The notes under the pieces were generated by a model, which was not told where the DNA came from, did no database searches, and worked only from the letters and a program-made list of their open reading frames with translations. DNA of 64,000 nt from Escherichia coli. Its GTDB lineage: Bacteria; Pseudomonadota; Gammaproteobacteria; Enterobacterales; Enterobacteriaceae. Each line of letters starts with the position of its first letter. The stretch's first letter is position 1. Made by a program: the position numbers and the translations under genes. Below, in pieces: positions 15,745-53,528 of the stretch. The stretch is taken from the NCBI RefSeq assembly GCF_024298765.1, contig NZ_CP101210.1; one strand, 5' to 3'.

Positions 15745-15820
<76 letters not shown>

Positions 15821-15960: not shown

Positions 15961-16047
15961 GCCCGGATGGTGGAATCGGTAGACACAAGGGATTTAAAAT
16001 CCCTCGGCGTTCGCGCTGTGCGGGTTCAAGTCCCGCTCCGGGTACCA
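15961..16047 (+). tRNA. leuZ: tRNA-Leu, long variable arm; integration target of the prophage
   Basis: 87-nt sequence gcccggatggtggaatcggtagac...tccgggtacca; its 3' half is duplicated at 53405-53459. Confidence 0.9.
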
Positions 16048-16116
16048 TGGGAAAGATAAGAATAAAATCAAAGCAATAAGCAGTGTCGTGAAACCACCTT
16101 CGGGTGGTTTTTTTGT
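15993..16116 (+). repeat. attL: 124-bp direct repeat (3' half of leuZ plus downstream terminator)
   Basis: Identical by eye to 53405-53528; includes the leuZ terminator hairpin gaaaccaccttcgggtggttttttt. Confidence 0.85.
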
Positions 16117-16588
16117 ATTTGTATTTTGAGCAATGGCGGTAGAGTGGCGGTGGTGTGGCGATATGCAGAAACAATAATGGTGGTGCACGTGCTGTTTAAG
16201 CTCTAAGGATGAAGCAGAATTCTCCTGCAGCTCCTCCGTATTTCGCATAGTGAACCAAGACTTCGGTTAAACAAAATTTTTCTGGGATTTTTCCACTCGA
16301 CTTCATTTTTCCTCCAGTCATCCACCAAAGGTACCTGCGCTAATCTATCTTTTTTAATCTGACAACATCCTGAGAAAAGGCAAATTCGTCAGATTTACTG
16401 TTTTTTCTGCTGCTTCGAATGCCGATGTCTGCAGTACTGATAAGAGCTCTATCTCTTTGATATAGATCTTTTTTTTGATGAATTGCTCGACATATTATCG
16501 TTATGACACCTTCTTGTTAAAGGTGTTGTACTCCACATCTCGATTTTATGATGTGGGTTATGATTGGTTAGTAATAGAGTGTATCGGT

Positions 16589-16870
16589 ATGCGATGTGGT
16601 TTATTAATGGCAATATGCTTTTGTTTGGTATCTTTTAGTGGGTATGCAGCAACAGGAAAGTCTGATGTTCAGATCAAGAAAGAAATAATTAAAGAATCCA
16701 TTGAATCATATCCAGGCAATTGTGCGTGTCCTTATAATCATGCAAGGAATGGTAGTAGGTGTGGTGGACGCAGTGCATATAGCCGTACTGGAGGGTATGA
16801 TGTGGTATGTTATGAGAGTGATGTTACTGATGAAATGATCCGGCAATGGAAGCAGGAGAATGCTGATTAA
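16589..16870 (+). CDS. Hypothetical secreted cysteine-rich small protein (prophage moron)
   Basis: Signal peptide MRCGLLMAICFCLVSFSGYA followed by a Cys-rich mature region (GNCACPYNH...RCGG...VVCYESD); AT-rich. ORF finder extends it to 16475. Confidence 0.4.
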   Translation: MRCGLLMAICFCLVSFSGYAATGKSDVQIKKEIIKESIESYPGNCACPYNHARNGSRCGGRSAYSRTGGYDVVCYESDVTDEMIRQWKQENAD

Positions 16871-17061
16871 TTACTTTTGACTGGTTTGTTTTGCGAGCAT
16901 TATGTGTGTTGTTAACGGTACCCTAGCTAAGTGAGAGTTCCAAAATAAAACCCGCAGTTTTTACGCTGCGGGTTTTATTGTTTCTGTCGATGGGATAGGG
17001 TGCCACTTCGGCCAGCCTTGGCAACCGATTGACGGGGGATTACTCCCCCGTCGCGGTTTCC

Positions 17062-17202
17062 TTACTGCTTACACTGTAAGAACGCCGCAAACTCCGCTCC
17101 CCAGAAGCTCATCCGTATTTCACACAGCGAACCGTGCAGCATCCAGATGATGAGGATTACCGTCACGCAGAACGTGATGGCCGTAAGCGATTTTTGCGAC
17201 AT
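17062..17202 (-). CDS. Hok/Gef-family type I toxin-like small membrane peptide
   Basis: 46-aa translation MSQKSLTAITFCVTVILIIWMLHGSLCEIRMSFWGAEFAAFLQCKQ: TM helix followed by SLCEIR and E(F/V)AAF, the Hok family pattern. Confidence 0.55.
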   Translation of the reverse strand: MSQKSLTAITFCVTVILIIWMLHGSLCEIRMSFWGAEFAAFLQCKQ

Positions 17203-17383
17203 AGCGCTTGCTCCTTTTTAGGGGAGGCGCTAACCTATCACTTGCTAAGGTTAGATGGTTAGGGCCTCGGTTAAACAGAGATGTTTTCCGGGGCCTTTCC
17301 ACATCTGGCCTTCGGGCATACCCTCCGACCATCAGCCGAAAGGCACCCGCGCGTAATCTATCGTTTTTTTGTTGCTTCGGCAA
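17120..17383 (-). CDS. Mok-like overlapping reading frame (translational coupling frame for the hok-like gene)
   Basis: 87-aa ORF overlapping the hok-like gene in another frame, as in hok/mok/sok loci. Confidence 0.3.
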   Translation of the reverse strand: MPKQQKNDRLRAGAFRLMVGGYARRPDVERPRKTSLFNRGPNHLTLASDRLAPPLKRSKRYVAKIAYGHHVLRDGNPHHLDAARFAV

Positions 17384-17392
17384 TTCTGCTCG

Positions 17393-17653
17393 TTAATTCT
17401 GAGGTAAAGGCAAACTCATCTGATTGTTTCCCCTGTGTGACGTTGGCAGTTCATGCCACGGGATACCTTCTGAAGATCGAACGCCTGAGGTGTGTTTCGA
17501 TGTGAATTTATGGAAAGCTTCCAGTGTTGAGAAGCATACGCCGCATTCCAGGTTGTTACACTGGTAATACTTTTGTCGGACGGTGTTTGAATCATTTTCC
17601 GGACGACTTGTGCGGATACGGGCAGATGCGCCACAAAGCGGACAACGGAACAT
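17393..17653 (-). CDS. ogr: Ogr/Delta-family zinc-finger late-gene transcription activator
   Basis: MFRCPLCGASARIRTSRP...YYQCNNLECGVCFSTLE: Cys4 pattern and N-terminus resemble P2 Ogr. Confidence 0.8.
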   Translation of the reverse strand: MFRCPLCGASARIRTSRPENDSNTVRQKYYQCNNLECGVCFSTLEAFHKFTSKHTSGVRSSEGIPWHELPTSHRGNNQMSLPLPQN

Positions 17654-17896
17654 AGCAACCTCCCTTTAGGTGGTGCTATTCTAAACTTCATCAATGCAGA
17701 TTCCAACTCCTTCCCACTTTAAGCGAAGGATGGTGATAAAGTCAGAATATGTTAGATGAAGTCTAAACGGGCGATAAGTTTTCCAATATTTGAATAACAA
17801 CGTGGCAGGATTTTTGTTTATCAATTATCTTACACTTTTAAGTGTAATAAATTTGTTAGTGATGACAATATTGTGAGAGGAGATTATCAATTGAAG

Positions 17897-19360
17897 ATGG
17901 CAAAAAATAACAATGATAAAATGCGGGCAAAGTATAGGCCGTTCATAAATATATGGGAACATCTTCCTTCTGAGTTCAATGAACTCATCAAGACGTTAAT
18001 GGTGCTGATACGGCAAGGGGAAAATGTGGGAGCTCAGCAAAGGGAGCTTGATTCCATCGAAAACTTCAAACACCTGTTAAGTGGATGGAAGCGGGCGCAA
18101 AGGATCATAGCTGATGAACTCATTATCAGGCTTTCTCAAATCAAGGATCTGGAGTTAGAAAAGAATTGTGCCCATTCAAAAAAGGACTATGAAACAAAGA
18201 AGAAGTGTATACGCAATATTGAAAGGACTAGACTAGAAATTAGGATTTTACGTAGGTGCATTGATTCAATTGTATGGGCGATATTCCGCAATGAACACTC
18301 GTCTATAAGACGGTTACCTATAAATAGAAATACTGACAATCTGACAATATTTAATATACATGATTCAATGGTGGTAGCAGATGAAATCAATGCTGATCCG
18401 ATGGCTATAGCTGTTATCACTGATATTACTACGTTTGTACATACTGGTGATTTACTTGCGTTAATACCTCAGCAAGGCATAACTTTAATTGAAATAAAAA
18501 GTGGTAAGAAAAATATAGAGTTTTCAAAGGCGGCTATGTTCTCAGTGCAAAGTAAATGTCTTCATTTTGATGAGATTTATAGAAAAGACCTTGATAAAAA
18601 TGACTTGAAACACTATGACAGAGCTAAGCGTCAACTTAAAAGAGCTCAAAATGTGATAGATGTCATTGAAACTGGTAAGGGATTTGATAACTTTTTTCAG
18701 TCTCAAGTAACAATTCATGACAGAGATTTTTGTCCCGATTTTTATACAGATAAGATTATTGAGCTTTGGTATGAGATATATAACGGTAAAACTTGGGCGA
18801 TTACTGACATTAATGATTGTTTATTCCTTGGGGCATATATTAATTCTAATATGGGTTTTTGCGGTTTTAATGGATGGATGGAGGTATCTAGAATATCGGG
18901 GAGAGTGTTTAATATTCTTGATAGCTTTTCAGATGCTTTATCACGTCCATTTTTTAGTTTGAACCTACCTGATAAATTGCTTCTGGATATCATTAATGGC
19001 AATCTAATTGTTGTGCTGTGTTTCGATCATCGTCGTTTCGTAGAAAGAGCAAATAAAAAATACCCCGGGATTTATGAGTTATTGGACTTTCCATCTCCGA
19101 AGATTAATCCTATGAGTATGCTTTCCATCAATGGGAAGGGGGTAGTTTCTAGTGTTGATGGACAGAGTGTTTTTATTGGAAATGGTTACGAAACACGGAT
19201 TATTTTTGATCAGCAATATCCAGATAGTCTGATTAAGTGGTCATACCATATGAGTGATCTCAAAAAAAATATTGATAAAAAAAAGCGTAAAATGAAAAAG
19301 GAAACGCAAAGAAAAATAAAAGAGAAAAGAAAACGTAGCAGAAAACAATGCTTAAACTAA
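17897..19360 (+). CDS. Hypothetical 487-aa protein, AT-rich orphan moron between ogr and gpD (candidate accessory or defence gene)
   Basis: Long ORF in a very AT-rich island; RBS GAGAGGA upstream of ATG 17897 (ORF finder starts at GTG 17873); possible PD-(D/E)xK-like motif GD...EIK; Lys/Arg-rich C-terminus. Confidence 0.55.
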   Translation: MAKNNNDKMRAKYRPFINIWEHLPSEFNELIKTLMVLIRQGENVGAQQRELDSIENFKHLLSGWKRAQRIIADELIIRLSQIKDLELEKNCAHSKKDYETKKKCIRNIERTRLEIRILRRCIDSIVWAIFRNEHSSIRRLPINRNTDNLTIFNIHDSMVVADEINADPMAIAVITDITTFVHTGDLLALIPQQGITLIEIKSGKKNIEFSKAAMFSVQSKCLHFDEIYRKDLDKNDLKHYDRAKRQLKRAQNVIDVIETGKGFDNFFQSQVTIHDRDFCPDFYTDKIIELWYEIYNGKTWAITDINDCLFLGAYINSNMGFCGFNGWMEVSRISGRVFNILDSFSDALSRPFFSLNLPDKLLLDIINGNLIVVLCFDHRRFVERANKKYPGIYELLDFPSPKINPMSMLSINGKGVVSSVDGQSVFIGNGYETRIIFDQQYPDSLIKWSYHMSDLKKNIDKKKRKMKKETQRKIKEKRKRSRKQCLN

Positions 19361-19490
19361 CACATCTAATGCTTTAATTTGCTTTACTGTTACAATGTCC
19401 GCTTACTGGTACAGGGCGGACTGCCATATTAGATTTGGTTCTATCTCGTAAGAGTGGCCGTTCAGGTCTGCACTAATACATCTGAATGGT

Positions 19491-20600
19491 TCACTCTGTT
19501 TCTGCTATCCATTCCGGGATTTTTGCTTCAAGCTCAAGCTGAGTGGTAAAGCCGCTGTTATCAATGGTGTGCTCGGCTTTTGCAATAATCCAGTCCTGAT
19601 TATCAATCTCGCTTTTAAATCCTGTTACCGTGCCATGCATTTCGGGGAAGAGTTCTGCGCGTCCGCGTGCCAGTGTGATGGAGAATGATGCGGCTCCGCG
19701 TTGTAGTTGTTGCCACTTTGCCGCCGCTGCGCGTCTTGCTGCCTGCTCGTTCTGATAAGTCTTGCGTAACACAAACACATTGCCTTCCGCGCCTTCCATA
19801 TAATCACCTTCACGGCTGCTGCTTTTCTCTTTTTTCGGTTTTGGCGGTTTGCGGCGTTTCACGCTGACTTTTTTCTTTTTCCCGTAATTAAGATCAAGCC
19901 AGTAAGCGCGTACCCCCGTATACGCCTCGCGGTCAGCAATGCGGAACTGATGGCGATCGCCGCTGCTGCGTGTGATGGCGAACGATGGCAACGGCTGGCC
20001 CTGTGCGTTCACGCCACCGCCGGGCATGATGAATAACAGATTACCGCTTTTTACCGTGGTGATTGCGCCCAGCATTTCCGCCATGCGCGTAAGGAAGGAC
20101 ATGTCACTTTCTTCGGTCTGGTCGGCGTGGTCGATTTCGATATGCATCAGCATTTCGCTGATTTGCGGTTTCAGACCGTACCGATGAGCGATGGCGGATA
20201 CCACACGCTCAACGGTCACATCATGCCAGGACACCTCACGTTTAACGTTAAATTCATCCCGAAAATCTGCGCTTCTGGCTGAAACAGTCAGCCTGTCCGG
20301 CGGTCCTTCGTGTGCGATTTCATCGACAATGTAAGAGCCTTTTTCTGTCAGCGGTTCGCCTTTCCAGCCAATGAGAACCGTCAGGCGCGCGCCCCGTGGC
20401 GGTAGCCGCAACTGACCATCCGCATCATCCAGCGTGATGGTGAGCTGGTCTGCCTCAAATCCCCGGTTGTCGGTCAGCGACAGGCTCATCAGGCGCTCTG
20501 CCACGCCGGACAGCGTTTTACCCTCCGCGAGAATATCAAAATCCGGCATTTTTACGGGGTCTGTGCCCTGACTGAGCAATTGCATGGTGGTGTCGGTCAT
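19491..20600 (-). CDS. Tail protein gpD (P2 D homologue)
   Basis: Start at MTDTTMQLL with a GGGAGGG RBS; the ORF finder extends it to 20732. Confidence 0.8.
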   Translation of the reverse strand: MTDTTMQLLSQGTDPVKMPDFDILAEGKTLSGVAERLMSLSLTDNRGFEADQLTITLDDADGQLRLPPRGARLTVLIGWKGEPLTEKGSYIVDEIAHEGPPDRLTVSARSADFRDEFNVKREVSWHDVTVERVVSAIAHRYGLKPQISEMLMHIEIDHADQTEESDMSFLTRMAEMLGAITTVKSGNLLFIMPGGGVNAQGQPLPSFAITRSSGDRHQFRIADREAYTGVRAYWLDLNYGKKKKVSVKRRKPPKPKKEKSSSREGDYMEGAEGNVFVLRKTYQNEQAARRAAAAKWQQLQRGAASFSITLARGRAELFPEMHGTVTGFKSEIDNQDWIIAKAEHTIDNSGFTTQLELEAKIPEWIAETE

Positions 20601-20757
20601 CTGTTCCCTCCCTGTGCGGCATGGTCGCATGTGCGTGCGGCGGGGGTTACTGCTTTTTGTTGTCGCCGGGTCGGGAGAACGGCGCAGGGGTGAGATTACG
20701 CGCGTGGTGGGTGATGATTGTTGCCGAATCATTTAACGGATACAAGGGGCTGAAGCT

Positions 20758-21942: not shown

Positions 21943-22454
21943 TGGCTGTGCCAAAACATCTTCGCTTTTTTACGCTGTTTGTGGATGGTGAAAACGAAGT
22001 GGGTAAGGTGACGTCCGTCACTCTGCCTAAGCTGACGCGCAAAACCGACAGCTACCGGGGGGGTGGCATGATGGGTGCGGTAAGTATTGATCTCGGTCTG
22101 GACGACTCCGCGCTTGATGCGAGCTTTGTCATGGGGGGCGCAGTTCGTGAGCTGTTCCTGAAGTATGGCGGCACGATTGACGGCACGCTACTGCGTTTTG
22201 CGGGTGAATACTACACCGATGCAGAAAGCGACCTGTATGAAGTCGAAATGCGCGGACGTGTGACGGAAATTGATATGGGGGAAGCCAAACAGGGCGAAGC
22301 CACATCACACACTTACGCCATTAAAAACACCTACTACAAGCTGAGTGTTAACGATCGCCCGTTGTGGGAGATTGATCTGCTGAACTTCATTTACCGGAAG
22401 GACGGCAAGGACATTGTGCCCGATCGCATCCGTTCCGCGCTTGGGCTTGGCTGA
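21942..22454 (+). CDS. Tail tube protein (P2 FII homologue)
   Basis: 170 aa immediately after the sheath gene with an ATGA overlap. Confidence 0.85.
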   Translation: MAVPKHLRFFTLFVDGENEVGKVTSVTLPKLTRKTDSYRGGGMMGAVSIDLGLDDSALDASFVMGGAVRELFLKYGGTIDGTLLRFAGEYYTDAESDLYEVEMRGRVTEIDMGEAKQGEATSHTYAIKNTYYKLSVNDRPLWEIDLLNFIYRKDGKDIVPDRIRSALGLG

Positions 22455-22508
22455 TAAGTAATATGCAGGCGGCGCAGTGCGTCGCCTCTGACTGAAAGGA
22501 GTTTCCTG

Positions 22509-35939: not shown

Positions 35940-35941
35940 TG

Positions 35942-37538: not shown

Positions 37539-37583
37539 TTTTTCTCTCCGTTACAGGCGGGCATGATGCCCGCCGTGAGTTGA

Positions 37584-38636: not shown

Positions 38637-38659
38637 AAAAAATTTGCTCCTTTGTCTTA

Positions 38660-39496: not shown

Positions 39497-39650
39497 AGTT
39501 TTTGCCCCTCTGACTGGTTCTTCAGTCATGATGGCAAAGCGTAACAGGCTGATACAAAGGGCTTTTGTTGTAAGAAAACAGTCAGAACAGGGGGTTAAGG
39601 AGAACGGTTTCGCGCGCGGGTAATCTTCCTGTAATTACTCAGGGGGAGCA

Positions 39651-42870: not shown

Positions 42871-42909
42871 AATTGTGCAAATTTGTGCACTATTGTGCAT
42901 TTGTATAGT
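42871..42909 (+). promoter_or_regulatory. Iterated TTGTGCA repeats and candidate -10 (TATAGT) upstream of the cargo operon
   Basis: aaTTGTGCAaatTTGTGCActaTTGTGCAtttgTATAGTg: three copies at about 10-11 bp spacing followed by a -10-like hexamer. Confidence 0.4.
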
Positions 42910-42978
42910 GAAAAAAATATAGCAGAAAGTATACTTAGCGCCTTGTGGGCTACGTTAACTTTGCAGGAACATTTGGAA

Positions 42979-44358
42979 ATGAAAAAAATCAATAAAGAAG
43001 ATTCTAAAAGAACCTTTTTACGTGGATGGTTGCGATTTCTTCGTAGCGTTGAGAGAGCTAAGAAAAAAAAGCCTGCGCAAGAGAAAAATGGTAGTCTTCG
43101 TTTTTCCGATGAAACAACTCCTGTCCAAAACCAAGTCGCTACGTTCATTGAAAATATATCGATTATAAAAGAGTATGACTCATCAATTCTTCGTCGTGAC
43201 GCAGAGAAGATATTAATACCTAAATATTTTGACTTATATGACAATCCAGAGAAATCTCTGCTATTTATTAGTGCAGCCACAAAATTAATTGCAAGAGGTA
43301 AATGGAAATCATATATTTTTGATTACAAGAAAAACAAAAAACACTGTCTTGGTCTTGAGTGTCTATTAGGTGTTGCTCTTACAGCAGCAAGGCAAAGTAA
43401 TATAAATTTCAAAGATACGATGATTCAGATTAATGGTATCTACCCTAAAGATGAACAGTATCTTGAAATTATCAGGGATGTCGGGCTTGTAAAAGAGATT
43501 AGTAATGCTGCACCAGGTAAAGTTCTGGACTCTACTGAAGCATCGAAAAAAGCGAATCCGAAGAAACGAATCTTCTCTGCTGATAGTATCGGAAAGGAGA
43601 ATGCTTCTGCCTTTGCCCATGACAGAAAAAATGTCACTGCTGAAAAATTTACCGCATACATAAACGAATGCTTAAATGATCATAATTTAAAACTTGTACA
43701 TGAGGCAGAAAAGCATTTAACTTCCTGCATGGGGGAACTCCTTGATAATGCGGAGCGGCATTGTGGGTTAGAGCAACGCCCACGCTGGTATTTGAGAGGT
43801 TTTGTTAATAATAACGTACGAAACCCCATATGTGAGTTGGCTGTTTTCAATTTTGGGAAAACTATCAGCGAAACTTTTGATAATTTACCTGAGGATCATT
43901 TTTCATTAAGTCAACAAGTTAATCCATACATAAATAAGCATATTAAGAAAAAGGGTATGTTTAAGGAAGGATTAACAACAGTAGCGGCCTTGCAAGGGCG
44001 GGTGAGTTGTAAAAACGAGAAAGAAACTGACAGTTCTGGCACCGGAACAATTGAATTATTGAAGTTATTTCAAGATATGCATGATAATCTTAAAAAAATG
44101 GGAAGAGATATTAAAGGTGGGATAAAAATGACTTTAATATCTGGTAGTACTCATATTAACTTTGATGGATCATATAAATTAAAGCAAAGGTTGGTTAATG
44201 ACGAGGAAAGTGACATTTTTACTTACCCTTTTAATGATGTAGGGCTTGAATCTGAACCGGATCGCAACTATCTTAAGCGTATGAAGGATGCTCGATTTCC
44301 TGGAGTTATGATCAATATTCGTTTTCCTCTACCAGAAAACGCCACCCAGCGAACTTGA
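42979..44358 (+). CDS. Hypothetical protein with C-terminal GHKL-type (histidine kinase/SpoIIAB-like) ATPase domain; candidate defence gene A
   Basis: N-box-like ELLDNAERH, G-box-like DSSGTGTIELL, terminal GG...G...FPLP typical of HATPase_c; AT-rich; RBS AGGAAC before ATG 42979 (ORF finder starts at 42883). Confidence 0.55.
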   Translation: MKKINKEDSKRTFLRGWLRFLRSVERAKKKKPAQEKNGSLRFSDETTPVQNQVATFIENISIIKEYDSSILRRDAEKILIPKYFDLYDNPEKSLLFISAATKLIARGKWKSYIFDYKKNKKHCLGLECLLGVALTAARQSNINFKDTMIQINGIYPKDEQYLEIIRDVGLVKEISNAAPGKVLDSTEASKKANPKKRIFSADSIGKENASAFAHDRKNVTAEKFTAYINECLNDHNLKLVHEAEKHLTSCMGELLDNAERHCGLEQRPRWYLRGFVNNNVRNPICELAVFNFGKTISETFDNLPEDHFSLSQQVNPYINKHIKKKGMFKEGLTTVAALQGRVSCKNEKETDSSGTGTIELLKLFQDMHDNLKKMGRDIKGGIKMTLISGSTHINFDGSYKLKQRLVNDEESDIFTYPFNDVGLESEPDRNYLKRMKDARFPGVMINIRFPLPENATQRT

Positions 44359-44368
44359 GGACAGGTAC

Positions 44369-44713
44369 ATGAAAATGGCTGACATCACCATAGATTTCAA
44401 TAAGTTAGTAAAAGATAGTAACAAGAAACTTTTTGCTGGACGTTCTAATGGGCGCCAGGCCTATGATTACTTTAATATAGGGAAATTTTGCACAACCAGT
44501 AATGATAGATTATATCTATTGATCCCCAAGGGAATTGTTGTATCAAGCTCATACTTTCTAGGTATGCTTGAAACGGTTTTGCCGAAATTTTCTTCGCCTA
44601 GCGAATTTTATAGTCGCACTGTACTTGATGGTCGTGAATATAAAGAAGGTATGCTTTCTGAATTAGATAGAGCTGTAAGGAGAGGCTTACATAAAAATGT
44701 TCCCTTCTTTTAA
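44369..44713 (+). CDS. Small protein, possibly STAS/anti-sigma-antagonist-like; candidate defence gene B
   Basis: 114 aa immediately after the ATPase gene; IVVSSSYFLGMLE resembles the STAS core; very tentative. Confidence 0.4.
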   Translation: MKMADITIDFNKLVKDSNKKLFAGRSNGRQAYDYFNIGKFCTTSNDRLYLLIPKGIVVSSSYFLGMLETVLPKFSSPSEFYSRTVLDGREYKEGMLSELDRAVRRGLHKNVPFF

Positions 44714-45506
44714 AAATATTTTTCAAATCAAAATGACAGCGCTGTCTGTCATTTTTTTTATATTCCCCGCAGCTTGCTCTGTGACAGATTTTTCCAATAA
44801 AGAAAACATTGAATGTAATGAGTCACTTTATCCAAACACGCCTTTTTATATTTCCGATTCAGGACTTAGTGGTATATCATCACCGTTTTTGTTATCCGGA
44901 AACCCGAATGATGGCTTGATGTTTTGTGAAAAGGCAAACGACACCTTTCATAAGTTATCTCTGGCAAGGGATAACAAAAAAGATTTATTTACTAATTATT
45001 TCAAAGATGTTCCAAATTCCTATGATATATATAATATTGTAAAGGTTCCGGAAAATGGTCCAGAGTGGATTTCTATTGGCATCTCTTTATTTGCTTTAGT
45101 TTCATCCTTTGTTATTCCTTGTGTTCAACATAGAAAAGAACGTAAAGAAGCTATTAATGAAGGGTATTGGGTAAGAGAAGTAATTATGCCTAAAATTAAT
45201 GGGTTGGCATTCGATGTTGTGCAAAGTTTTAAAAACTCCATGGCATTATCAGAAGAGGAGTTTCTTAGTGTATTCAGTAATACTCTTTTACCAAAACTAG
45301 GAGAGTTACGGGATTCATTATATTTGTTTAATAGTTTTCCAGAATTAAATGCAGATATTGAAAATCTAGAAAGTATTTGTGACTCCTTGGAGGAAGAAGT
45401 TTCCAATCATATAGACTCGCCTAATGAAATAAGAATTTCTGATATATCAATGTTTCATTCCAAATTAATACAGAAATTAATTTTACTTCATAAGAAGATA
45501 GGTTGA
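44697..45506 (+). CDS. Membrane-anchored protein; candidate defence gene C (possible effector)
   Basis: Overlaps gene B by 17 nt; hydrophobic N-terminus (MTALSVIFFIFPAACS) and a central TM helix (WISIGISLFALVSSFVIPCV). Confidence 0.45.
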   Translation: MFPSFKNIFQIKMTALSVIFFIFPAACSVTDFSNKENIECNESLYPNTPFYISDSGLSGISSPFLLSGNPNDGLMFCEKANDTFHKLSLARDNKKDLFTNYFKDVPNSYDIYNIVKVPENGPEWISIGISLFALVSSFVIPCVQHRKERKEAINEGYWVREVIMPKINGLAFDVVQSFKNSMALSEEEFLSVFSNTLLPKLGELRDSLYLFNSFPELNADIENLESICDSLEEEVSNHIDSPNEIRISDISMFHSKLIQKLILLHKKIG

Positions 45507-45551
45507 TTTTCAAGGCCTCCTTATTCCTAGGGCGGCCTTAGCTCTATATTT

Positions 45552-48317
45552 CTATCGTGTTCGATGCAATAAACTGATTTTTTTGCGAGCATGTTTAGTG
45601 GTTTCACTGATTCTCTGTGCGTGCTCTGCGTCGCGGATGGCGCGCAGCATGTCAGAAAGTACGGTAACGGGTGTTTTCATGGTGTTCTGGTCTTGCTGAA
45701 GTGTGGATGCCAGGCGTGCGGCGGCTTCAGGGTCTGATGCCTCTAGTTGTTCCAGATAGCTGGCGACCGGGTTATGGCGGATCTCCGTGCTGCTTACGCC
45801 GTGATTACGACTCAGGCGTTGCCAGAGCTGCGTGATTCGGCTGTCCGGGCGGGTATCCTGTTTGCGTACAATTTCAAATCCCTGCGGTGCAATGATGCTG
45901 CCGCCAACGTACAGACTGCCGCCTCGTAACAGGTGCTGCATCTGCTGTTCACCGATATGCAGGCCGAGAGATTCAGCAGACTCCCGCCATTCTTTAGCGA
46001 GTAACTCGTGGTTATCAGGCAAAGGCTGTGGCTGTTTGCGGCTCTGTGTCCAGTTCTGCATTTCATCACTGCTGTTTTTTGCCTGTTTGTCACGCAGCGA
46101 ACGCATCAGTGCCCGGCGTTCGTGCCGTTTCAGTGAGCGCATCCATTCATTCACGTCAACGCCTTCAGGAAGCCGCGGCCACGGTGCTGGCCGTTCTTCC
46201 GGCTGTTCTGTCCCGTTGTTGTCCGTTTCCTGTACACGGGGACAGTTATTGCCACGAGTCCAAGGGGCGGCAGGGCCGCCCTGAAGGTCAAAACCATTTT
46301 CGCGGGCGCTGTCTTCCGTTTCCGGTTTACGTCTTACCAGTTTCCAGTTATCCGGATGCGTGCACACACGGGAGGATTCCCCGATGAGTGGTGACCAGAT
46401 CCCGTAAATCTGTACGCTCTGTTCGCCGTAATCATTCAGCTCATCTGCGAGGTCGTAGGCGGTGCGAATCAGGTAGTCTTTGCGTGGAACAAGTACGCCG
46501 CCCTGTTTTTCAATGTAGGTGGCAAAACACCCGGCATCGGCGGCAGCGAGTACCGCATCCATTGCGTCATCTTTCAGTCGTTGCGGGCCTTCCGGGTTGC
46601 GTGCCATCTGGCTGGCAAGGCGGCGCAGTTCACGCCACACCTGACGGGAGGGGATGCCAAAGAACTGGAACTGGCGGACCCGATGAAGGCGCGCCCAGCC
46701 GATGGCGCGCTCCACACTCTCGGCCATTGATTTTCCGGTTTCGTGGTCAACGCGTGGCTTGCCCGTTTTCGGGTCGATGCCATCCACGGCGCGGCTGTCC
46801 AGGTTCTTTCCGATGTAGGTCGCGATATAGCTGGTTGGTGTGCCTTTTGAGCCGTCGACATACTCCGCCTTAAAGCGCGGAGTAATATCATTGCCCAGCT
46901 CGTGGCGGTCTTCCTGAATGGCAATATCGCGGGTGATGGCCACGATGCTGTCGATTTCTTCCGGATGAGCAAAGACCATCATATGCCAGTGCACGGTGCC
47001 GTCATGGTGAGGCTCCACCGTGCGGATGCCATACCAGCGAAGACCGTCGCGGTTCAGTTTTTTGCGGACCGCCGCAAAAAACGTGTTAACCAGGTAATCG
47101 CTGGAGTCGCGCATGGTGGCCCCGTTCCATTTGGGATTCGGATGACCGTTCTCTGTTGTGGCGTGGTATTTTGACGGGCAGGTGACAGTCAGAAACACCG
47201 CTTTGTCGCCACGGGCTTCGGCCAGAAGTTCCAGCCCCTTCATGGTGGCCATCATTTCTGCCTTACGGTGAACCGGGTTACTTACTCCCGCGTAATACAC
47301 CGTCTCGAGATCAATCGTGAACCCGTCTTCGTTTTCCAGCATGAAACTTTTCAGGAAATCGCGTGTTTTCTCGCGCTGTGCGCGAAACTCGCTTAACGCG
47401 TCCTGGCTCAAATAGGGCGATGTTTTTCTGGAAACCAGACAGGCGGCGCGGAGTTGTTCTTCTCTCCACTCGCAACGTAACAGCCACAGTTTGCGTTTCC
47501 ACCATTCCGCACAGGTCAGGCGAAGGATTGCGCCCGGCAGCAGTTCTGTGTCCGGTTCGTTCCTCCGGTCTTTGTCTGTTGTCAGTGCGTCATAATGCGG
47601 AGGCATGGCGTGCAAGTGTAACGCCATGCGGGCCAGCATCTGATACGCCTTCAGCGTTACATCCATGGTCAGCTCGCCATCGGTCGCGCCAAAACCATCG
47701 CAGAGTTTTTCGAAGGTGCTGCTGAACATCGCCGCCGTCATGGTGGCCAGCGTCTGTATCTGGTGTTTGTTGAGTTGCGGCAGGTAAAGCAAATCGTCCA
47801 GGCGTTCACGTCCGGCAAGGGACCGATAACCCGGTGTCAGCCAACGGCTGTCGGTGCGGTCCAGACGTACGAATATTTTGCGCAGGGTTCCGCGCGCGTA
47901 GCGTTCAGCCTGCCAGCTCTTTTTGCCTTTCTGACGATCGGATTCCTGTTTTTTGCGCAGGAAAGAGAGGTGGCGGCTCAGAGGTTCACGCAGATAAACG
48001 GGAAGCACCTTCAGTGTGGCAAAAGCACGGGCCACCGGGTCTTGTTCTGTTGCCTGACGCTTGCTGATGATGCTTTGTGCCAGCTTTTCACGCTGTCCGG
48101 CTTCCTCAAGGGATGCCATGAGTTTTTTACCCACGGTGGATTGTGCGAAAAAGGCTTCCTCCTTCGCTTCCTGTTCTTTCCGGGCCTTTTTGTCCGCCTC
48201 AAGGTAGTAACGGATGGCGCGTTGCAGCTCGGTTTCAGTTTCCTGCCTGCGCTCCGTAAATCTGTCCGGATCAATGGCTGGCCGTGGTTCATTCCAGCTC
48301 CATGCAAACTCACTCAT
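45552..48317 (-). CDS. Replication initiation protein gpA (rolling-circle endonuclease), with extended C-terminus
   Basis: About 921 aa; start MSEFAWSWNEPRP overlaps the upstream ORF stop (ATGA); longer than the ~760 aa I recall for P2 A. Confidence 0.8.
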   Translation of the reverse strand: MSEFAWSWNEPRPAIDPDRFTERRQETETELQRAIRYYLEADKKARKEQEAKEEAFFAQSTVGKKLMASLEEAGQREKLAQSIISKRQATEQDPVARAFATLKVLPVYLREPLSRHLSFLRKKQESDRQKGKKSWQAERYARGTLRKIFVRLDRTDSRWLTPGYRSLAGRERLDDLLYLPQLNKHQIQTLATMTAAMFSSTFEKLCDGFGATDGELTMDVTLKAYQMLARMALHLHAMPPHYDALTTDKDRRNEPDTELLPGAILRLTCAEWWKRKLWLLRCEWREEQLRAACLVSRKTSPYLSQDALSEFRAQREKTRDFLKSFMLENEDGFTIDLETVYYAGVSNPVHRKAEMMATMKGLELLAEARGDKAVFLTVTCPSKYHATTENGHPNPKWNGATMRDSSDYLVNTFFAAVRKKLNRDGLRWYGIRTVEPHHDGTVHWHMMVFAHPEEIDSIVAITRDIAIQEDRHELGNDITPRFKAEYVDGSKGTPTSYIATYIGKNLDSRAVDGIDPKTGKPRVDHETGKSMAESVERAIGWARLHRVRQFQFFGIPSRQVWRELRRLASQMARNPEGPQRLKDDAMDAVLAAADAGCFATYIEKQGGVLVPRKDYLIRTAYDLADELNDYGEQSVQIYGIWSPLIGESSRVCTHPDNWKLVRRKPETEDSARENGFDLQGGPAAPWTRGNNCPRVQETDNNGTEQPEERPAPWPRLPEGVDVNEWMRSLKRHERRALMRSLRDKQAKNSSDEMQNWTQSRKQPQPLPDNHELLAKEWRESAESLGLHIGEQQMQHLLRGGSLYVGGSIIAPQGFEIVRKQDTRPDSRITQLWQRLSRNHGVSSTEIRHNPVASYLEQLEASDPEAAARLASTLQQDQNTMKTPVTVLSDMLRAIRDAEHAQRISETTKHARKKISLLHRTR

Positions 48318-48703
48318 GGCTGGTATCCCGTCACGCGCTGCCACTCCTGCGAGAAGAGGGTGGAAAGGCGGTTAAATTCAGCGGTGTATTCACTCAGCGA
48401 GGCACACCCGCCAGCAGTGTGATGCGCCAGCATTGCCGCAAATACGGAGGTCGGGGAGTCGTAATACGCCAGCAGTGATTCGCCATGCGGTGTCAGGCAG
48501 CGCAACGCCAGCCCGTGTGGTGTTAAGTCCACGCGGTAGCAGTCGTCTACTGTGAAATAAAGGGTGTCTGCATTCTCCGGTTTTGTAGTGCGTGCTCTGT
48601 TGTCACGACTACGGATGTAGAGATCAAATAATCCCTGAAGAACGGGAGCCAGACGGGTGTCCTGTGTGCGCACCCATCTTGTGAAGTCATGAGCGTCAAT
48701 CAT
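48314..48703 (-). CDS. Hypothetical early-region protein, translationally coupled to gpA
   Basis: 129-aa ORF whose stop overlaps the A start. Confidence 0.45.
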   Translation of the reverse strand: MIDAHDFTRWVRTQDTRLAPVLQGLFDLYIRSRDNRARTTKPENADTLYFTVDDCYRVDLTPHGLALRCLTPHGESLLAYYDSPTSVFAAMLAHHTAGGCASLSEYTAEFNRLSTLFSQEWQRVTGYQP

Positions 48704-48811
48704 GCTGCAATTCTCTCTACTAAGGATGTGCGAAGGCTTCCTGCCAAAAAACTCAGAAGCGGTCGGTTACAGGAATTGGCGTTCTACGAGTAGTTATTGC
48801 TGGCTTGAGGT

Positions 48812-49030
48812 TCATTTCTGTTTAATTCCGTGCATGCTGTAGAAGAAATCAAAAGTGCTATCTATGCGTATCATGAGCTCACGCTGTATCGCTTCTGGTG
48901 TTTCTGGTTCACCTGGCGAGCCAACTCCCGCGAAGAAATCACCGATCTCGCTTTTAATAAGTGCCTTTAGCGTTGCTGAGGAATTCAGGTGTGTGCGGTG
49001 ATGTTTGCGAGTGATTCTTCTCCTGCTCAT
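48812..49030 (-). CDS. Hypothetical small early protein
   Basis: 72-aa ORF in the early operon; overlaps the next ORF by 4 nt. Confidence 0.35.
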   Translation of the reverse strand: MSRRRITRKHHRTHLNSSATLKALIKSEIGDFFAGVGSPGEPETPEAIQRELMIRIDSTFDFFYSMHGIKQK

Positions 49031-49230
49031 TTGCGTGGATCCTGTACCTGTCGGATAAGATTCACCCGCGCCACATTAGTGGCGCAGAAGTAAGTACCGT
49101 CAGTGAGATAGATGTGGTGTGCATCCTTTTCTGAGCGGTGTTTGTCGATTGTGGTAATCAGGCGTTCGTCGACTTCGTATTCACGTCCTCTGGAAGTGAA
49201 ACGAACGACAGGAAAATGCTTAATTGCCAT
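49027..49230 (-). CDS. Hypothetical small early protein
   Basis: 67-aa ORF in the early operon. Confidence 0.35.
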   Translation of the reverse strand: MAIKHFPVVRFTSRGREYEVDERLITTIDKHRSEKDAHHIYLTDGTYFCATNVARVNLIRQVQDPRK

Positions 49231-49427
49231 TACACCTCCTGGGCGTGTGCGAATACCTCCGCGAATGCGGATTGTTTTTACATTTTCTTATTTAACCTAG
49301 GGTTTTTATTTGCGCTGTTATTCGCCAGTGAAAAAGCGGTCAATCTTTTTTACTGAACGAATAATTCGCATAATCCCAATGGCGCAGACCACCGAAATAA
49401 TCAGAACAAGCCATGAGATAAATATAC

Positions 49428-49670
49428 TCATGCAATATTCCCCAGCTTATACGGTTCAATATGCTCCCCGCATTCTGCGGCACAGATCAGCTCGGAAAGT
49501 TCGTTAAGTGCATCCAGATCATCAGCGTAAAAAGCCACGTCATACAGACTCCGGATTGCCCTGGTTAATGAGTCACGGGCTGCACGTTCAGCATGAGTAC
49601 CTGATGCACTTAAGCGAAAATAAAAACGCTCAAGTGCTTTGTTTATGAGAGTCTTATATTCTTTGCCCAT
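49428..49670 (-). CDS. Hypothetical small early protein
   Basis: 80-aa ORF in the early operon. Confidence 0.35.
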   Translation of the reverse strand: MGKEYKTLINKALERFYFRLSASGTHAERAARDSLTRAIRSLYDVAFYADDLDALNELSELICAAECGEHIEPYKLGNIA

Positions 49671-49681
49671 CGCAACGCCCT

Positions 49682-49960
49682 TTAATCTGCTTTCTGAATT
49701 TCAGCTTCTGAATCCATGCAGATAATTTCGATATAGGGTTCATCGCCATTAACCTGACGAGCTTTTTCAGCTTCGTTAATTATTTCGCGAACGGTCTGGT
49801 ACGGAAGTTCTACTGTCAGGCGCGTACCGTTCAGATAAACGTAGGTAGCTGCATTTTTTCAGATGGAACTACTCCGTCAATAGCTGATGCGCGTAATAAC
49901 AGTTCACCGCGAAAATCAATAAAGCGGATAAATACACCTTGTGCATGGTCTTTAGTCATA
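49682..49960 (-). pseudogene. Small early gene (about 90 aa) interrupted by a frameshift at an A6 run
   Basis: MTKDHAQGVFIRFIDFRGELLLRASAIDGVVPSE... continues in another frame as ...TYVYLNGTRLTVELPYQTVREIINEAEKARQVNGDEPYIEIICMDSEAEIQKAD after the run at 49854-49859. Confidence 0.3.
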
Positions 49961-49969
49961 AAGCACCTG

Positions 49970-50320
49970 TTATAAATCAGCCTGTTTAATAAAACTTTGC
50001 CCGCGAAGCAAACGATCGACTGTGCGCAGTGCTTCGTACAATGTAAAATCCTGCCCGAACTGATTATCGCCGTTGCTTAATGCAAAAATGCGGTTTCCGG
50101 TAAACGGATTGCGTGAGCATCTGTGAACCACTATTCCAGCTTTCTCAATCAGCCAGGTGTGTTCGCCGATTTGTTTTACAGCGTGCCCATCTGGTGTTGC
50201 GTGCGTCTCGTTCAGGTTATAGCGATTGTTACTACGTGATGCACTGGTAGCGACGTGGTGTATATGGCGTTCTACGCCATTACGAAATTTGGAGTATGGA
50301 TTATTAGCGTGTTTTTTCAT
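49970..50320 (-). CDS. Hypothetical early protein
   Basis: 116-aa ORF in the early operon. Confidence 0.4.
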   Translation of the reverse strand: MKKHANNPYSKFRNGVERHIHHVATSASRSNNRYNLNETHATPDGHAVKQIGEHTWLIEKAGIVVHRCSRNPFTGNRIFALSNGDNQFGQDFTLYEALRTVDRLLRGQSFIKQADL

Positions 50321-50341
50321 GATGATGCTCTGTTCATTGTT

Positions 50342-50545
50342 TTAGCTGTTAGCCAAAGCGTCTTTTAACATCGCCACAAGGTTTACTTCAGGCTTTTCCA
50401 TTTTGGCACGTTTGGGGCGGATAATAATTCGACCGTCAGCCAACATCTTTTTGCATGTATTAAGAGGGATACCTGTTATCTCTGCATATTTCTGCAGGGA
50501 TACATAGGGGGCATTCACATTGATATTGATGGTTATACCTGACAT
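50342..50545 (-). CDS. Small HTH DNA-binding protein (Cox/Apl/excisionase-like)
   Basis: 67 aa with HTH-like YVSLQKYAEITGIPLNTCKKMLADGRI; second gene of the early operon. Confidence 0.4.
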   Translation of the reverse strand: MSGITININVNAPYVSLQKYAEITGIPLNTCKKMLADGRIIIRPKRAKMEKPEVNLVAMLKDALANS

Positions 50546-50561
50546 CCCACTAGCCTCCTGA

Positions 50562-50768
50562 TCAGGAAGATTTGTTTTGTTCTTTCTGGGTTAGCTCTAG
50601 GCCGCGAAGGAAGATCATGCGCGCCATGTTAGAGGATGAGCGTTGTTCTTTAGTTGCCATTTCATCAATGACGGCTCGCTCTTCGAGGGACAGCCGAAGT
50701 GCCAGTCTTGGACCTGTGGCGGTGTTACGCGGAATGCGTGATCTGGTATCGTGAAGAACTTGTTTCAT
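50562..50768 (-). CDS. Small early regulatory protein (first gene of the early operon)
   Basis: 68 aa, divergent from the repressor gene across a 75-bp switch region. Confidence 0.4.
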   Translation of the reverse strand: MKQVLHDTRSRIPRNTATGPRLALRLSLEERAVIDEMATKEQRSSSNMARMIFLRGLELTQKEQNKSS

Positions 50769-50810
50769 AGTGGTATATTGTGATCATCTAATAGCTCGTG
50801 AAATCATTTT

Positions 50811-50828
50811 GGTATCAAAAAAGATACC
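50811..50828. promoter_or_regulatory. Candidate operator palindrome GGTATC-N6-GATACC in the genetic switch region
   Basis: Perfect 6-bp inverted repeat with an A6 spacer between the divergent early and repressor genes. Confidence 0.35.
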
Positions 50829-50843
50829 TGTCAAGGTTTTTGT

Positions 50844-51248
50844 ATGAAAAATGATATTGGTCAGCGGTTGCGTGAGGAAAGGGAAAGATTGGGGCTTAGT
50901 CAAGTTGCTATGAGCGAAATTGGTGGAGTCAAAAAGCTAACTCAGCTTAGATATGAGAAAGGAGATAGCTTTCCTGATGCTGCGTATTTGGCAGCGCTGT
51001 CTCGTTTTGGCCTTGATGTTCAGTATGTTGTGTTGGGAATTCACTCACCTGAAACTTATAACGATGATGAGCAGGAGTTGATTACTCGCTTTCGAGCAGC
51101 TTCGTTAGATGTAAAAAACGCGGTGATCGGGGCTTTAAAAAGTGCGGGCAGTGAAAAGGAAACTCAGCCATCAGGGCGTGAGTTAAATATTTCTGGTGGT
51201 AATAACCGTATCGCTGGTCGTGACTATAACGAAACTAAGGGTAGGTGA
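50844..51248 (+). CDS. Immunity repressor (XRE-family HTH, C/CI-like)
   Basis: N-terminal HTH IGQRLREERERLGLSQVAMSEIGGVKKLTQLRYEKG; divergent from the early operon; same strand as int. Confidence 0.65.
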   Translation: MKNDIGQRLREERERLGLSQVAMSEIGGVKKLTQLRYEKGDSFPDAAYLAALSRFGLDVQYVVLGIHSPETYNDDEQELITRFRAASLDVKNAVIGALKSAGSEKETQPSGRELNISGGNNRIAGRDYNETKGR

Positions 51249-51263
51249 TAGTAGGGAGGTGAC

Positions 51264-51914
51264 ATGGCCGTCAACTCAAACGGTTCAAACAATCGCGTTG
51301 CTGGGCGTGATTTTCACGAAAAGAATATTCAGATAGAGCGATATGATGGTTCTCATACCGTCAATATCGCAATCCCTTCGAATAATGATGATGACGCTCG
51401 CCCTTTGCTTAAGGCACAGCGTAAGGAGCTAAATAGCTTGGTTGCTGCTATTGCAGAAGCTAGCAATACTGAAGCGTTTATTATTTGGCAAAAAGTACAT
51501 GCGGAGATTGGTGTAGCTGGTATTGATGATATGACAATAAATCAATATAAAACAGCGGAGAGTTTTCTGCATGCAATGCTTGAGCGATGTAAAGATCATG
51601 ATGCCTGTAAGACTCTTGTAAGTTTATTACTACGTAACAGTGAAGACTGTGGACTTCGACAAAAACTTCTGCGGTATTGCCATATCAATTTCGGTACAGG
51701 ACGTTTAAACGATCTTACTCGTTCTCAGTTACAGTCTGCATTGTCGTGGTTAGAGCAACAATCGGTATCAAGCCACACAGAGAATTCGACCTTACCAGAA
51801 GTCCGCCTTCGTGCTTCAGAATTAATCCGATTTTATCCAAAAGAAATAATATTCTTTATCTGCGTAGGGGTTTTGGTAGGCGGAGCCATTTCTAGGATGT
51901 TTTTTAATTTGTAA
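51264..51914 (+). CDS. Hypothetical C-terminally membrane-anchored protein (lysogeny-expressed cargo)
   Basis: 216 aa with C-terminal TM IIFFICVGVLVGGAISRMFF; its N-terminus repeats a motif from the repressor C-terminus. Confidence 0.5.
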   Translation: MAVNSNGSNNRVAGRDFHEKNIQIERYDGSHTVNIAIPSNNDDDARPLLKAQRKELNSLVAAIAEASNTEAFIIWQKVHAEIGVAGIDDMTINQYKTAESFLHAMLERCKDHDACKTLVSLLLRNSEDCGLRQKLLRYCHINFGTGRLNDLTRSQLQSALSWLEQQSVSSHTENSTLPEVRLRASELIRFYPKEIIFFICVGVLVGGAISRMFFNL

Positions 51915-51943
51915 TCTTACTTGAGCTAAATTGAGGCAATGAC

Positions 51944-52291
51944 ATGAAAGTAAAAAAGGTTCAACTATTAGTTGCTTTTTTATCTATGTTTTCTTTTTCC
52001 GCCGTCGCAATGCCTTTTAAAACTATTGAACGTGAGAGTTTCAATGGAGTATGGCCATTTAATACAGATGAGGTTCAATTGCAGTGTCTTGATGGTAATC
52101 CTTATGTGATGAATTTTGACGATAATAAGTTATATGCGCTTACAGGTTTGGCTCGAATAAAAGGTAAAACATTTGGTGCGTTACCGTTAGATAACAATAA
52201 TCCATTTTGGCTAGATAATGATGCCGCCCCTGGGTTAAAAAAGAATCTGGGGGACGTCACTAAGGCTGCATTTGATTTATGTGATAAGTAA
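51944..52291 (+). CDS. Hypothetical secreted/periplasmic protein (lysogeny-expressed cargo)
   Basis: 115 aa with signal peptide MKVKKVQLLVAFLSMFSFSAVA and two Cys. Confidence 0.5.
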   Translation: MKVKKVQLLVAFLSMFSFSAVAMPFKTIERESFNGVWPFNTDEVQLQCLDGNPYVMNFDDNKLYALTGLARIKGKTFGALPLDNNNPFWLDNDAAPGLKKNLGDVTKAAFDLCDK

Positions 52292-52296
52292 CAAAG

Positions 52297-53298
52297 ATGT
52301 CGGTTCGTAAGATTCCATCAGGTAAATGGCTTTGCGAATGTTATCCCTACGGAGCATCGGGAAAACGCATTCGTAAACAGTTTGCGACAAAAAGTGAGGC
52401 GCTCTCTTATGAGCGCCGTTTAATGAATAGTAGAGTTGGAGACGAGTTTCAAGATGGTTCTGGTCCTCGTCTTTCTGAGTTGATTGCTCGTTGGTTTGAG
52501 ATGTACGGCAAAACCTTGTCCTCTGGTGCAGAGCGCAAAGTCAAACTTGAGGCGATTTGTTCTAGGCTGGGAGATCCATTTGCTTCTCAGTTTGACAAAA
52601 ATATGTTTGCTACTTATCGGGAAAGAAGGCTATCAGGAGAATGGAATCCCAAGGGGAAGAAAAAACTTAGTGAAGCAACCGTTAATCGCGAGCAGTCATA
52701 TCTACATGCTGTTTTTGCCGAACTGAAGCGCCTTGGGGAGTGGTCTGGTGAAAACCCCCTGACTGGAATTCGCAAGTTTCGTGAGGAAGAAAAGGAGCTG
52801 GCGTTTCTGTATGTAGATGAGATTGAACGCCTTTTGATTGCGTGTGATGAGTCACGGAATAAAGATTTGGGGGTTGTTGTCCGTATTGGGCTTGCGACTG
52901 GTGCTCGGTGGAGTGAAGCAGAAGGATTAAAGCAATCTCAAGTACTGCCCGGTCGAATCACATTTGTTAAAACTAAAGGAAAGAAGAACCGCACTGTACC
53001 GATTTCACCTCAATTGCAGGCTATGCTTCCTAAAAAACGAGGAGCGCTATTTTCACCATGTTATGAGGCTTTTGACGCTGCAATTAAGAGAGCGAAGATA
53101 GAGCTCCCTGATGGGCAATTAACTCATGTGCTACGTCACACGTTTGCTAGTCATTTTATGATGCGGGGCGGAAATATTCTTGTGTTGCAAAAAATACTGG
53201 GGCATAGCGATATAAAAATGACTATGCGTTATGCGCATTTTGCTCCGGGTCATTTAGAGGCTGCTGTTGAATTAAACCCTTTTGACAATAGAGGGTAA
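52297..53298 (+). CDS. int: Tyrosine integrase (P2/186 family)
   Basis: 333 aa with catalytic motifs ...RHTFASHF... and HSDIKMTMRYAHF; next to attR. Confidence 0.9.
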   Translation: MSVRKIPSGKWLCECYPYGASGKRIRKQFATKSEALSYERRLMNSRVGDEFQDGSGPRLSELIARWFEMYGKTLSSGAERKVKLEAICSRLGDPFASQFDKNMFATYRERRLSGEWNPKGKKKLSEATVNREQSYLHAVFAELKRLGEWSGENPLTGIRKFREEEKELAFLYVDEIERLLIACDESRNKDLGVVVRIGLATGARWSEAEGLKQSQVLPGRITFVKTKGKKNRTVPISPQLQAMLPKKRGALFSPCYEAFDAAIKRAKIELPDGQLTHVLRHTFASHFMMRGGNILVLQKILGHSDIKMTMRYAHFAPGHLEAAVELNPFDNRG

Positions 53299-53404
53299 AA
53301 AGTGGCGATAAAAAGTGACAATAGATTCAAATGGCGTCGTATAGAGCTATTTGCAAAGTTAATAAAATCATAAGGTTATGATTTATAAATGGTGGTTGAT
53401 AGTT

Positions 53405-53528
53405 TTTAAAATCCCTCGGCGTTCGCGCTGTGCGGGTTCAAGTCCCGCTCCGGGTACCATGGGAAAGATAAGAATAAAATCAAAGCAATAAGCAGTGTCG
53501 TGAAACCACCTTCGGGTGGTTTTTTTGT
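53405..53528 (+). repeat. attR: 124-bp direct repeat (partial 3' leuZ copy plus terminator)
   Basis: Identical by eye to 15993-16116. Confidence 0.85.

Follow-up and report, generated by a model that had tools for sequence, protein, structure and literature searches.

Tyrosine integrases require sequence identity over only about 7 bp (PMC10111431), and the extended identity blocks found at tRNA genes, which reach about 250 bp (Williams group, PMC10111431), carry replacement sequence (PMC10111431; PMC3448106). The P2-like prophages include well described examples, with a sequence common to attL and attR of 110 nt in PhiKPN and of 50 nt in PhiESP (PMC3448106). In Escherichia coli, the tRNA-Leu gene leuZ is a published prophage site, occupied by Sp13 in O157:H7 Sakai (PMC8190617) and by prophages in O121:H19 strains (PMC8767318). 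Here we analyze a prophage located at leuZ in a 64,000-nt stretch of E. coli DNA (contig NZ_CP101210.1; hereafter the window), which extends from 16117 to 53404 (37.3 kb) plus one copy of a 124-nt sequence duplicated at its two ends. We conclude, with a probability of roughly 0.88, that it arose by Campbell-type site-specific integration of a P2-family temperate phage of the P88-like group (Xuanwuvirus), in which the anticodon loop of leuZ served as the core and the remainder of the duplicated block is replacement sequence.

Two groups of described P2-like phages share features of this integration. The 186-type prophages resemble it by a long common attL/attR sequence that restores the tRNA and by similar arm repeats (PMC3448106), but they use other tRNA targets (ileY for 186, tRNA-Met for PhiKPN and PhiESP). 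The arm repeat of the 186/HP1-type integrases is of the same kind, tgccGCCActt, the reverse complement of aagTGGCggca (PMC3448106). The closest counterpart is the Haemophilus phage HP1, also of the P2 family, which has a homologous integrase and uses the same tRNA-Leu(UAA) anticodon loop. In the HP1 record (NC_001697), attP is annotated at 251-694 and follows int. At 161 nt past the int stop begins TTTAAAATCCCTCG, the anticodon loop and 3′ half of tRNA-Leu(UAA); the identical TTTAAAATCCCTCG opens the block of the window. The HP1 block is about 181 nt long and consists of the tRNA-Leu 3′ half, a spacer, and a complete tRNA-Lys(UUU). An attP/attB identity of 182 bp has reportedly been published for HP1, which fits the length read from the record. 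From the work of Hauser and Scocca and of Hakimi and Scocca, the HP1 strand exchanges are said to lie 7 bp apart in the anticodon loop, the stem-loop reportedly suffices as attB, and IHF is said to be used.

For the body of the phage, the closest described genomes are those of the P88-like phages (P88, Citrobacter rodentium PhiSM, and 'phage 520873'). By megablast they are 94–96% identical to most of the prophage, comprising the late genes and the replication region. P88 differs, however, in the immunity/integration module, and the similarity ends near 50270. Exchange of integration modules is a known feature of P88-like phages; PhiSM, for its part, has pdxB as its site and a core of 17 bp (PMC6456863). 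The presence of the P2-type late genes in their usual order, together with this nucleotide similarity, places the prophage in the Peduoviridae, genus Xuanwuvirus.

Results

A 124-nt direct repeat starts at the leuZ anticodon loop

The two ends of the prophage are formed by a direct repeat of 124 nt at 15993-16116 (attL) and 53405-53528 (attR), both on the + strand and 37,412 nt apart from start to start. The two copies are 100% identical and represent the sole long direct repeat within 14000-56000; an exact repeat of this length in 64 kb cannot have arisen by chance. The left copy overlaps leuZ, the gene of tRNA-Leu(UAA) at 15961-16047 (+), which was recognized by ARAGORN and by the Rfam tRNA model (57.7 bits). 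The left edge of the repeat, 15993, coincides with the first base of the leuZ anticodon loop (TTTAAAA, 15993-15999). From this base the block runs through the 3′ 55 nt of the tRNA and a further 69 nt, which contain a spacer and a terminator, and it ends just beyond the latter. The terminator is the predicted Rho-independent terminator of the tRNA operon (16090-16114, +), a 9-pair hairpin at 16090-16111 followed by a run of T.

The junctions read GGGA/block/ATTTGTATTT at attL and TAGTT/block/GCCTGCAACT at attR, and the flanks are wholly different. A whole tRNA is present at one end only. At attL, leuZ is intact and combines 5′ 32 nt of host sequence with 3′ 55 nt that lie within the repeat and are probably phage-borne. 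At attR, a partial copy is found, which would be the displaced host 3′ half of leuZ with its terminator: ARAGORN detected no tRNA there, and the tRNA covariance model gave 17 bits versus a gathering score of 29. These results bear out the initial annotation, which had described a duplication of the 3′ 55 nt of the tRNA and its terminator, with an intact tRNA and terminator regenerated at attL and a nonfunctional partial copy at attR. leuZ is the sole known E. coli tRNA gene with the anticodon UAA, and an insertion destroying it would for this reason be strongly selected against.

The host genes on the left are pgsA, glyW, cysT, and leuZ, and those on the right are yecA and tyrP. Upstream of leuZ, the tRNA-Gly(GCC) and tRNA-Cys(GCA) genes were identified by ARAGORN and the Rfam tRNA model at 15745-15820 and 15875-15948 (+). 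A sigma-70-like promoter is predicted in front of the glyW-cysT-leuZ operon at 15644-15671 (+), by position only, from a consensus scan (10 of 12 matches). The yecA gene (53655-54320, +), according to the annotation of identical regions, directly follows leuZ in prophage-free strains.

The integrase and the arms of attP resemble those of HP1

A tyrosine integrase of 333 amino acids, with the Pfam domains Int_N and Phage_integrase, is encoded at 52297-53298 (+), and its stop codon precedes the attR block by 106 nt. Its closest characterized relatives are the integrases of the Haemophilus phages HP1, HP2, and S2 (58.5–59% over the full length; 58.5% for HP1). The catalytic domain matches the HP1 Int structure (PDB 1AIH) with an E value of 4.6e-75, and the motifs RWSEA, HVLRHTFAS, LGHS, and MRYAH are all kept, as are the catalytic Arg, His-X-X-Arg, His, and Tyr, which identifies the enzyme as an HP1-type integrase. 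As in HP1, int is transcribed toward attP, so that in the prophage it lies at the end far from the intact tRNA.

On both sides of the core, the sequence shows the pattern of arm-type direct repeats. The motif RTGGCGRT has 29 matches in the 64 kb, with four exact copies and one near-copy in the approximately 210 nt flanking the block and none inside it. The P′ arm (16133-16162, +) starts 17 nt beyond the attL block and, by motif search, contains three co-oriented copies at 16133, 16144, and 16155, with a spacing of 11 bp. The P arm (53302-53378, +) was predicted by motif scan in the 106 nt between int and the attR block; it contains the exact copy GTGGCGAT at 53302-53309, the near-copy ATGGCGTC at 53331-53338, and an IHF-like site, AATCATAAGGTTA, at 53366-53378. 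The same arrangement is found in HP1, where a TGGCG pair with 11-bp spacing precedes the block by 100–111 nt and another follows it after 12 nt, hence co-oriented repeats of identical spacing on both sides of a long replacement block.

The two systems are nevertheless distinct. The HP1 block of about 181 nt includes a whole tRNA-Lys, whereas that of the window has 124 nt and ends at the operon terminator, and the hosts differ. HP1 carries Hpunavirus structural genes, in contrast to the Xuanwuvirus (P88-like) genes of the window, and its regulators are cI and cox instead of an Arc-like, a Cox-like, and a helix-turn-helix (HTH) repressor.

The leuZ-yecA junction is empty in most genomes and interrupted at one base in a sample of the others

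The empty site was reconstructed by joining leuZ to yecA through a single block, and this query was searched in 5426 complete E. coli genomes. The site was found empty from end to end in 3789 of them (about 70%), and leuZ and yecA are contiguous in K-12 MG1655 (H82). The prophage thus splits a junction that is uninterrupted in K-12, as initially proposed, and the region is not part of the core genome. In approximately 1,600 genomes (about 30%), no contiguous leuZ-yecA match was obtained. A sample of interrupted genomes spread over the ranking broke without exception at query position 400/401, which corresponds to bases 15992/15993 of the window. An integrase of the window type adjoins yecA in 524 genomes, and a P′ (left) arm of the window type adjoins leuZ in 614.

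The unintegrated configuration was searched in IMG/VR and INPHARED. In IMG/VR a strict exact pattern gave no match, and a looser pattern retrieved two contigs (L014 and L015) with a contiguous attP in the order int, P arm, single block, P′ arm, hok, ogr. Both are 91–98% identical to the window over the aligned segments and represent close relatives from other strains, one contig being metagenomic. The attP block of L014 is identical to that of the window, that of L015 contains one additional T, and the P′ arm is kept in both. Among the INPHARED phage records, no contiguous attP was found. The only phage record with the integrase of the window, 'Escherichia phage 520873', is an excerpt of a decayed prophage with yecA attached, an IS100 insertion, and a split int.

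The same integrase, at 98.6% DNA identity or as the identical protein WP_001300279.1, is located beside yecA with the same 124-nt attR block in O157:H7, O111:NM, and strain 472. The strain 472 copy is a diverged remnant of about 22 kb disrupted by insertion sequences (IS), whereas the copy of the window has its full length of 37.3 kb and different cargo. Strains G12 and CREC-591 matched the junction queries at 100% but also carry different cargo.

Unrelated elements at leuZ share the limits of the block

Two other kinds of elements were found at leuZ. Strain AVS0343 carries a 42.6-kb prophage (L016 350-43117) bounded by an exact 125-nt repeat, with a 338-amino-acid integrase right beside the intact tRNA; this prophage has lambdoid-type head genes and a contractile tail. 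In JX21CE35 (L009 439-34701) and EC24 (L010 438-34111), a defence island of about 34 kb is bounded by a block of approximately 133 nt with the same limits, the attL copy of which differs by single-nucleotide polymorphisms (SNPs) and a 2-nt deletion, all located 3′ of the tRNA. The island encodes a 399-amino-acid integrase (Arm-DNA-bind_3) near the tRNA, a second integrase, a type I restriction-modification system, and an M48 peptidase, together with DUF262/GmrSD-like proteins and either Hhe or a PD-(D/E)XK nuclease. The integrases of AVS0343 and of the island are only 26–27% identical to that of the window.

In all three kinds of leuZ elements, the anticodon loop marks the start of the block, and its end is no more than a few bases from the terminator. 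These common limits in three unrelated elements indicate that the target sets the length of the block, which depends on how far the transcription unit extends beyond the crossover.

Composite elements were also observed. In p10A (L012 29487-45435) and ECKH-505 (L013 1385-5871), IS elements link a P2-like left end with the right end of the island. The P′ arm is present in both, and hok and ogr are also retained in p10A. These chimeras imply tandem occupancy of the site followed by deletion.

A model for integration into leuZ

The data above suggest the following pathway. The phage attP would span about 330 bp, beginning with two TGGCG arm sites just past the int stop, followed by the 124-nt block with the core at its left end, and finally by three further arm sites, spaced at 11 bp, immediately past the block. 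Int, probably with IHF, would pair attP with the anticodon stem-loop of leuZ, AGGGA-TTTAAAA-TCCCT (15988-16004, +), a presumed core-type Int site, and strand exchange would take place across the 7-nt anticodon loop. This 7-nt overlap (15993-15999) is placed by the start of the identity with attR at 15993 and by the HP1 parallel. The host 5′ 32 nt of leuZ would thereby be joined to the phage-borne 3′ 55 nt, spacer, and terminator. Such a join would keep leuZ, the last gene of the glyW-cysT-leuZ operon, whole and would stop read-through of the operon into the prophage, the terminator shielding the element from the tRNA operon promoter. The host 3′ half and terminator would be moved 37.4 kb away, beside int. 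Excision would be carried out by Int and the Cox-like protein. Crossing over most likely takes place in the 7-nt anticodon loop, where the block begins, the other 117 nt being replacement sequence brought by the phage. The block would measure 124 nt because the transcription unit ends that far from the anticodon loop.

Natural variation agrees with this polarity. The two copies of strain 472 disagree at two positions, each located downstream of the tRNA, with the standard host bases in attR and the deviating ones in attL. A similar pattern is seen in the islands of JX21CE35 and EC24, with attL-specific changes 3′ of the tRNA. The pattern of strain 472 is the one expected if the attL copy is phage-borne and the crossover occurs to its left, and as a sequence comparison it supports the proposed polarity.

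Several points weigh against this reading. The tRNA part of the block is invariant, so that the natural SNPs locate the crossover no more precisely than left of block position 68. The points of strand exchange are inferred from the block boundary and the HP1 homologue. The IHF-like sites, obtained by consensus scan, each carry one mismatch to the consensus, and a role of IHF is suggested by sequence. The activity of this particular copy is likewise deduced from its sequence. Finally, the homologue of the P2 baseplate/tail gene I (31243-31772, −) contains a 1-nt deletion at 31428-31446 (CCGGGAACATTT reduced to CCGGG-ACATTT) relative to G12 and CREC-591. This deletion splits the gene into two frames, and the copy may consequently be unable to form tails or infectious particles.

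This frameshift is the starting point of the alternative that survives best, namely that the element of the window is a fixed, defective, and immobile remnant whose repeats are scars of an old integration. Decay has clearly affected relatives at the same site, such as the IS-riddled 22-kb copy of strain 472, 'phage 520873', and the p10A and ECKH-505 chimeras. However, when the annotated proteins of the near-identical prophage of strain G12 were used as tblastn queries, the tested P2 late genes, the replication gene A, and the regulatory genes were found at full length and 92–100% identical to the G12 proteins, the exceptions being the variable tail-fibre genes G and H, gene E (76%), and the frameshifted gene I. 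The integrase, cox, and repressor genes are full length as well, with identities to intact relatives in the same range. Moreover, both repeats are perfect and close relatives are known as contiguous attP, while the frameshift in gene I could alternatively be a sequencing error and would not in any case block excision. We consider an immobile remnant unlikely.

A second alternative is that the whole 124-nt block acts as the crossover region, long identity being needed and exchange occurring anywhere within it by the action of Int or RecA. In the window, G12, and other genomes, the two copies agree at every base, which leaves no internal marker and would allow homologous exchange, and 124 bp suffices for RecA-mediated recombination. 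Against this, the block starts exactly at the anticodon loop in three elements whose integrases are only 26–27% identical, and the HP1 homologue has the identical left boundary. Where the copies diverge (strain 472, JX21CE35, and EC24), most of the changes are found in attL and every one of them lies downstream of the tRNA, as would be expected of a crossover at the left edge. Identity over about 7 bp is enough for a tyrosine integrase (PMC10111431). Exchange along the whole block is therefore very improbable, and a long crossover core of 124 nt was rejected on the left edge fixed at the anticodon loop and on the HP1 parallel. The initial annotation needs revision on two points here. It had called the entire 124 nt a duplicated core, whereas the core is most likely the 7-nt anticodon loop and the differences of strain 472 are in the attL copy only. 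It had also regarded 124 bp as unusually long, in contrast to the roughly 181 nt of HP1, the 110 nt of PhiKPN, the 125 and approximately 133 nt of the other leuZ elements, and published blocks of up to about 250 bp. The last alternative would assign the 37 kb to the core genome and explain the repeat by a local duplication that has nothing to do with mobility; it is rejected by the empty leuZ-yecA site in 3789 of the 5426 genomes, the full P2-type phage gene content, and the existence of the attP contigs.

Site-specific integration at the anticodon loop, with replacement of the distal part of leuZ, is thus the reading that we retain. The repeats are identical and the 37 kb is absent from this site in most E. 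coli genomes, and judged by its sequence the element is a mobile prophage.

Gene content of the prophage

The integrase is at the attR end, and ogr and the hok-like gene are at the attL end, as had been noted from the sequence. Starting from attL, the first gene encodes a protein of 131 amino acids (16475-16870, +; phrog_27544) and represents variable cargo between att and hok, other genes being present there in G12 and CREC-591. Between this open reading frame (ORF) and hok, a perfect 15-pair hairpin at 16944-16979 (AATAAAACCCGCAG...CTGCGGGTTTTATT) resembles a bidirectional terminator; it also gave several weak Rfam leader and small RNA matches, which are probably spurious. The hok/sok-like locus (17062-17348, −) comprises a Hok/Gef peptide at 17062-17202 (Pfam PF01848, E 3.7e-7, above the cut-off) and, just upstream, a sok-like RNA match at 17214-17348 (RF01794, 42.7 bits, E 8e-8) that is under the gathering score of 59. 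At the gathering threshold, Rfam gave no sok or hok RNA match at the locus. It is followed by the ogr/Delta late-gene activator (17393-17653, −; PF04606, E 4.8e-14).

The P2-type late block extends from 19491 to 42448 and was assigned by megablast, tblastn, and the Pfam GPD family. It contains D, FI, FII, E, T, U, an invertase with a tail-fibre cassette, H, I (frameshifted), J, W, V, S, R, the lysis genes, X, L, M, N, O, P, and Q. The gpD ORF of the window encodes 413 amino acids (19491-20732), and its C-terminal 266 amino acids, the part compared, are 99% identical to the annotated protein. In G12 (L001 6630-7483) and CREC-591 (L017 3167-4020), PGAP gives at this place a short gene of 801 nt assigned to the 'VgrG/Pvc8 family' and a partial ORF; from the sequence, the start chosen in these relatives may lie downstream of the true one. 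A serine DNA invertase of 201 amino acids (Resolvase and HTH_7) adjoins oppositely oriented tail-fibre and assembly segments at 26369-28573, and the region probably functions as a Cin/Gin-type switch that changes the host range by inversion.

Beyond the late block, the replication endonuclease of the P2 gene A type (45552-48344, −) is 97.6% identical to the annotated G12 protein. The early operon starts on the − strand (50342-50768) with an Arc-like repressor at 50562-50768 (phrog_3431, E 1.9e-28) and a Cox-like excisionase/repressor at 50342-50545 (phrog_575, E 1.2e-27). Divergent from these genes, the lysogenic operon 5′ of int (50844-52291, +) encodes an HTH immunity repressor (50844-51248), a protein of 216 amino acids, and a DUF2511 protein, according to Pfam and PHROG.

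Two further regions consist of cargo of low guanine-plus-cytosine (GC) content. An ORF of 495 amino acids between ogr and gpD (17873-19360, +) coincides with a GC dip to 35% and has no match in Pfam, PADLOC, or PHROG. Its position is a known variable cargo spot of P2-like phages, occupied in G12 by a different ORF of 465 amino acids and empty in CREC-591, and a possible function is that of an undescribed anti-phage gene. Three genes of 491, 114, and 269 amino acids with 35–37% GC (42883-45506, +) occupy the second P2 cargo hotspot, with the portal gene Q on one side and the replication gene A on the other; relatives carry ParM/partition or DUF3800 genes there. They have no match in Pfam or PADLOC and form a candidate defence system outside the known families. 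A broader proposal would be that the shared 124–133-nt leuZ segment acts as a docking and recombination platform, on which elements could accumulate in tandem and swap halves by RecA-mediated exchange, giving rise to chimeras of the p10A and ECKH-505 kind, and that the low-GC cargo includes undescribed anti-phage genes; this is speculative, and we regard it as rather improbable.

Discussion

The prophage combines an HP1-type integration module with a P88-like phage at a known hot spot. Both the kind of element and the site were already known, and its presence at leuZ leaves the current understanding unchanged. Its value is first for annotation: the limits of the prophage are fixed to the base, and its Int can be described as an enzyme of the HP1 type directed at the anticodon loop of leuZ. 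According to the survey, about 30% of the complete E. coli genomes have an interrupted leuZ; the break fell on one and the same base in each such genome that was examined, and no fewer than three kinds of elements use the gene. These observations indicate that an att duplication at a tRNA gene owes its length to how far the functional unit extends past the crossover, and that this length is not a property of the recombinase.

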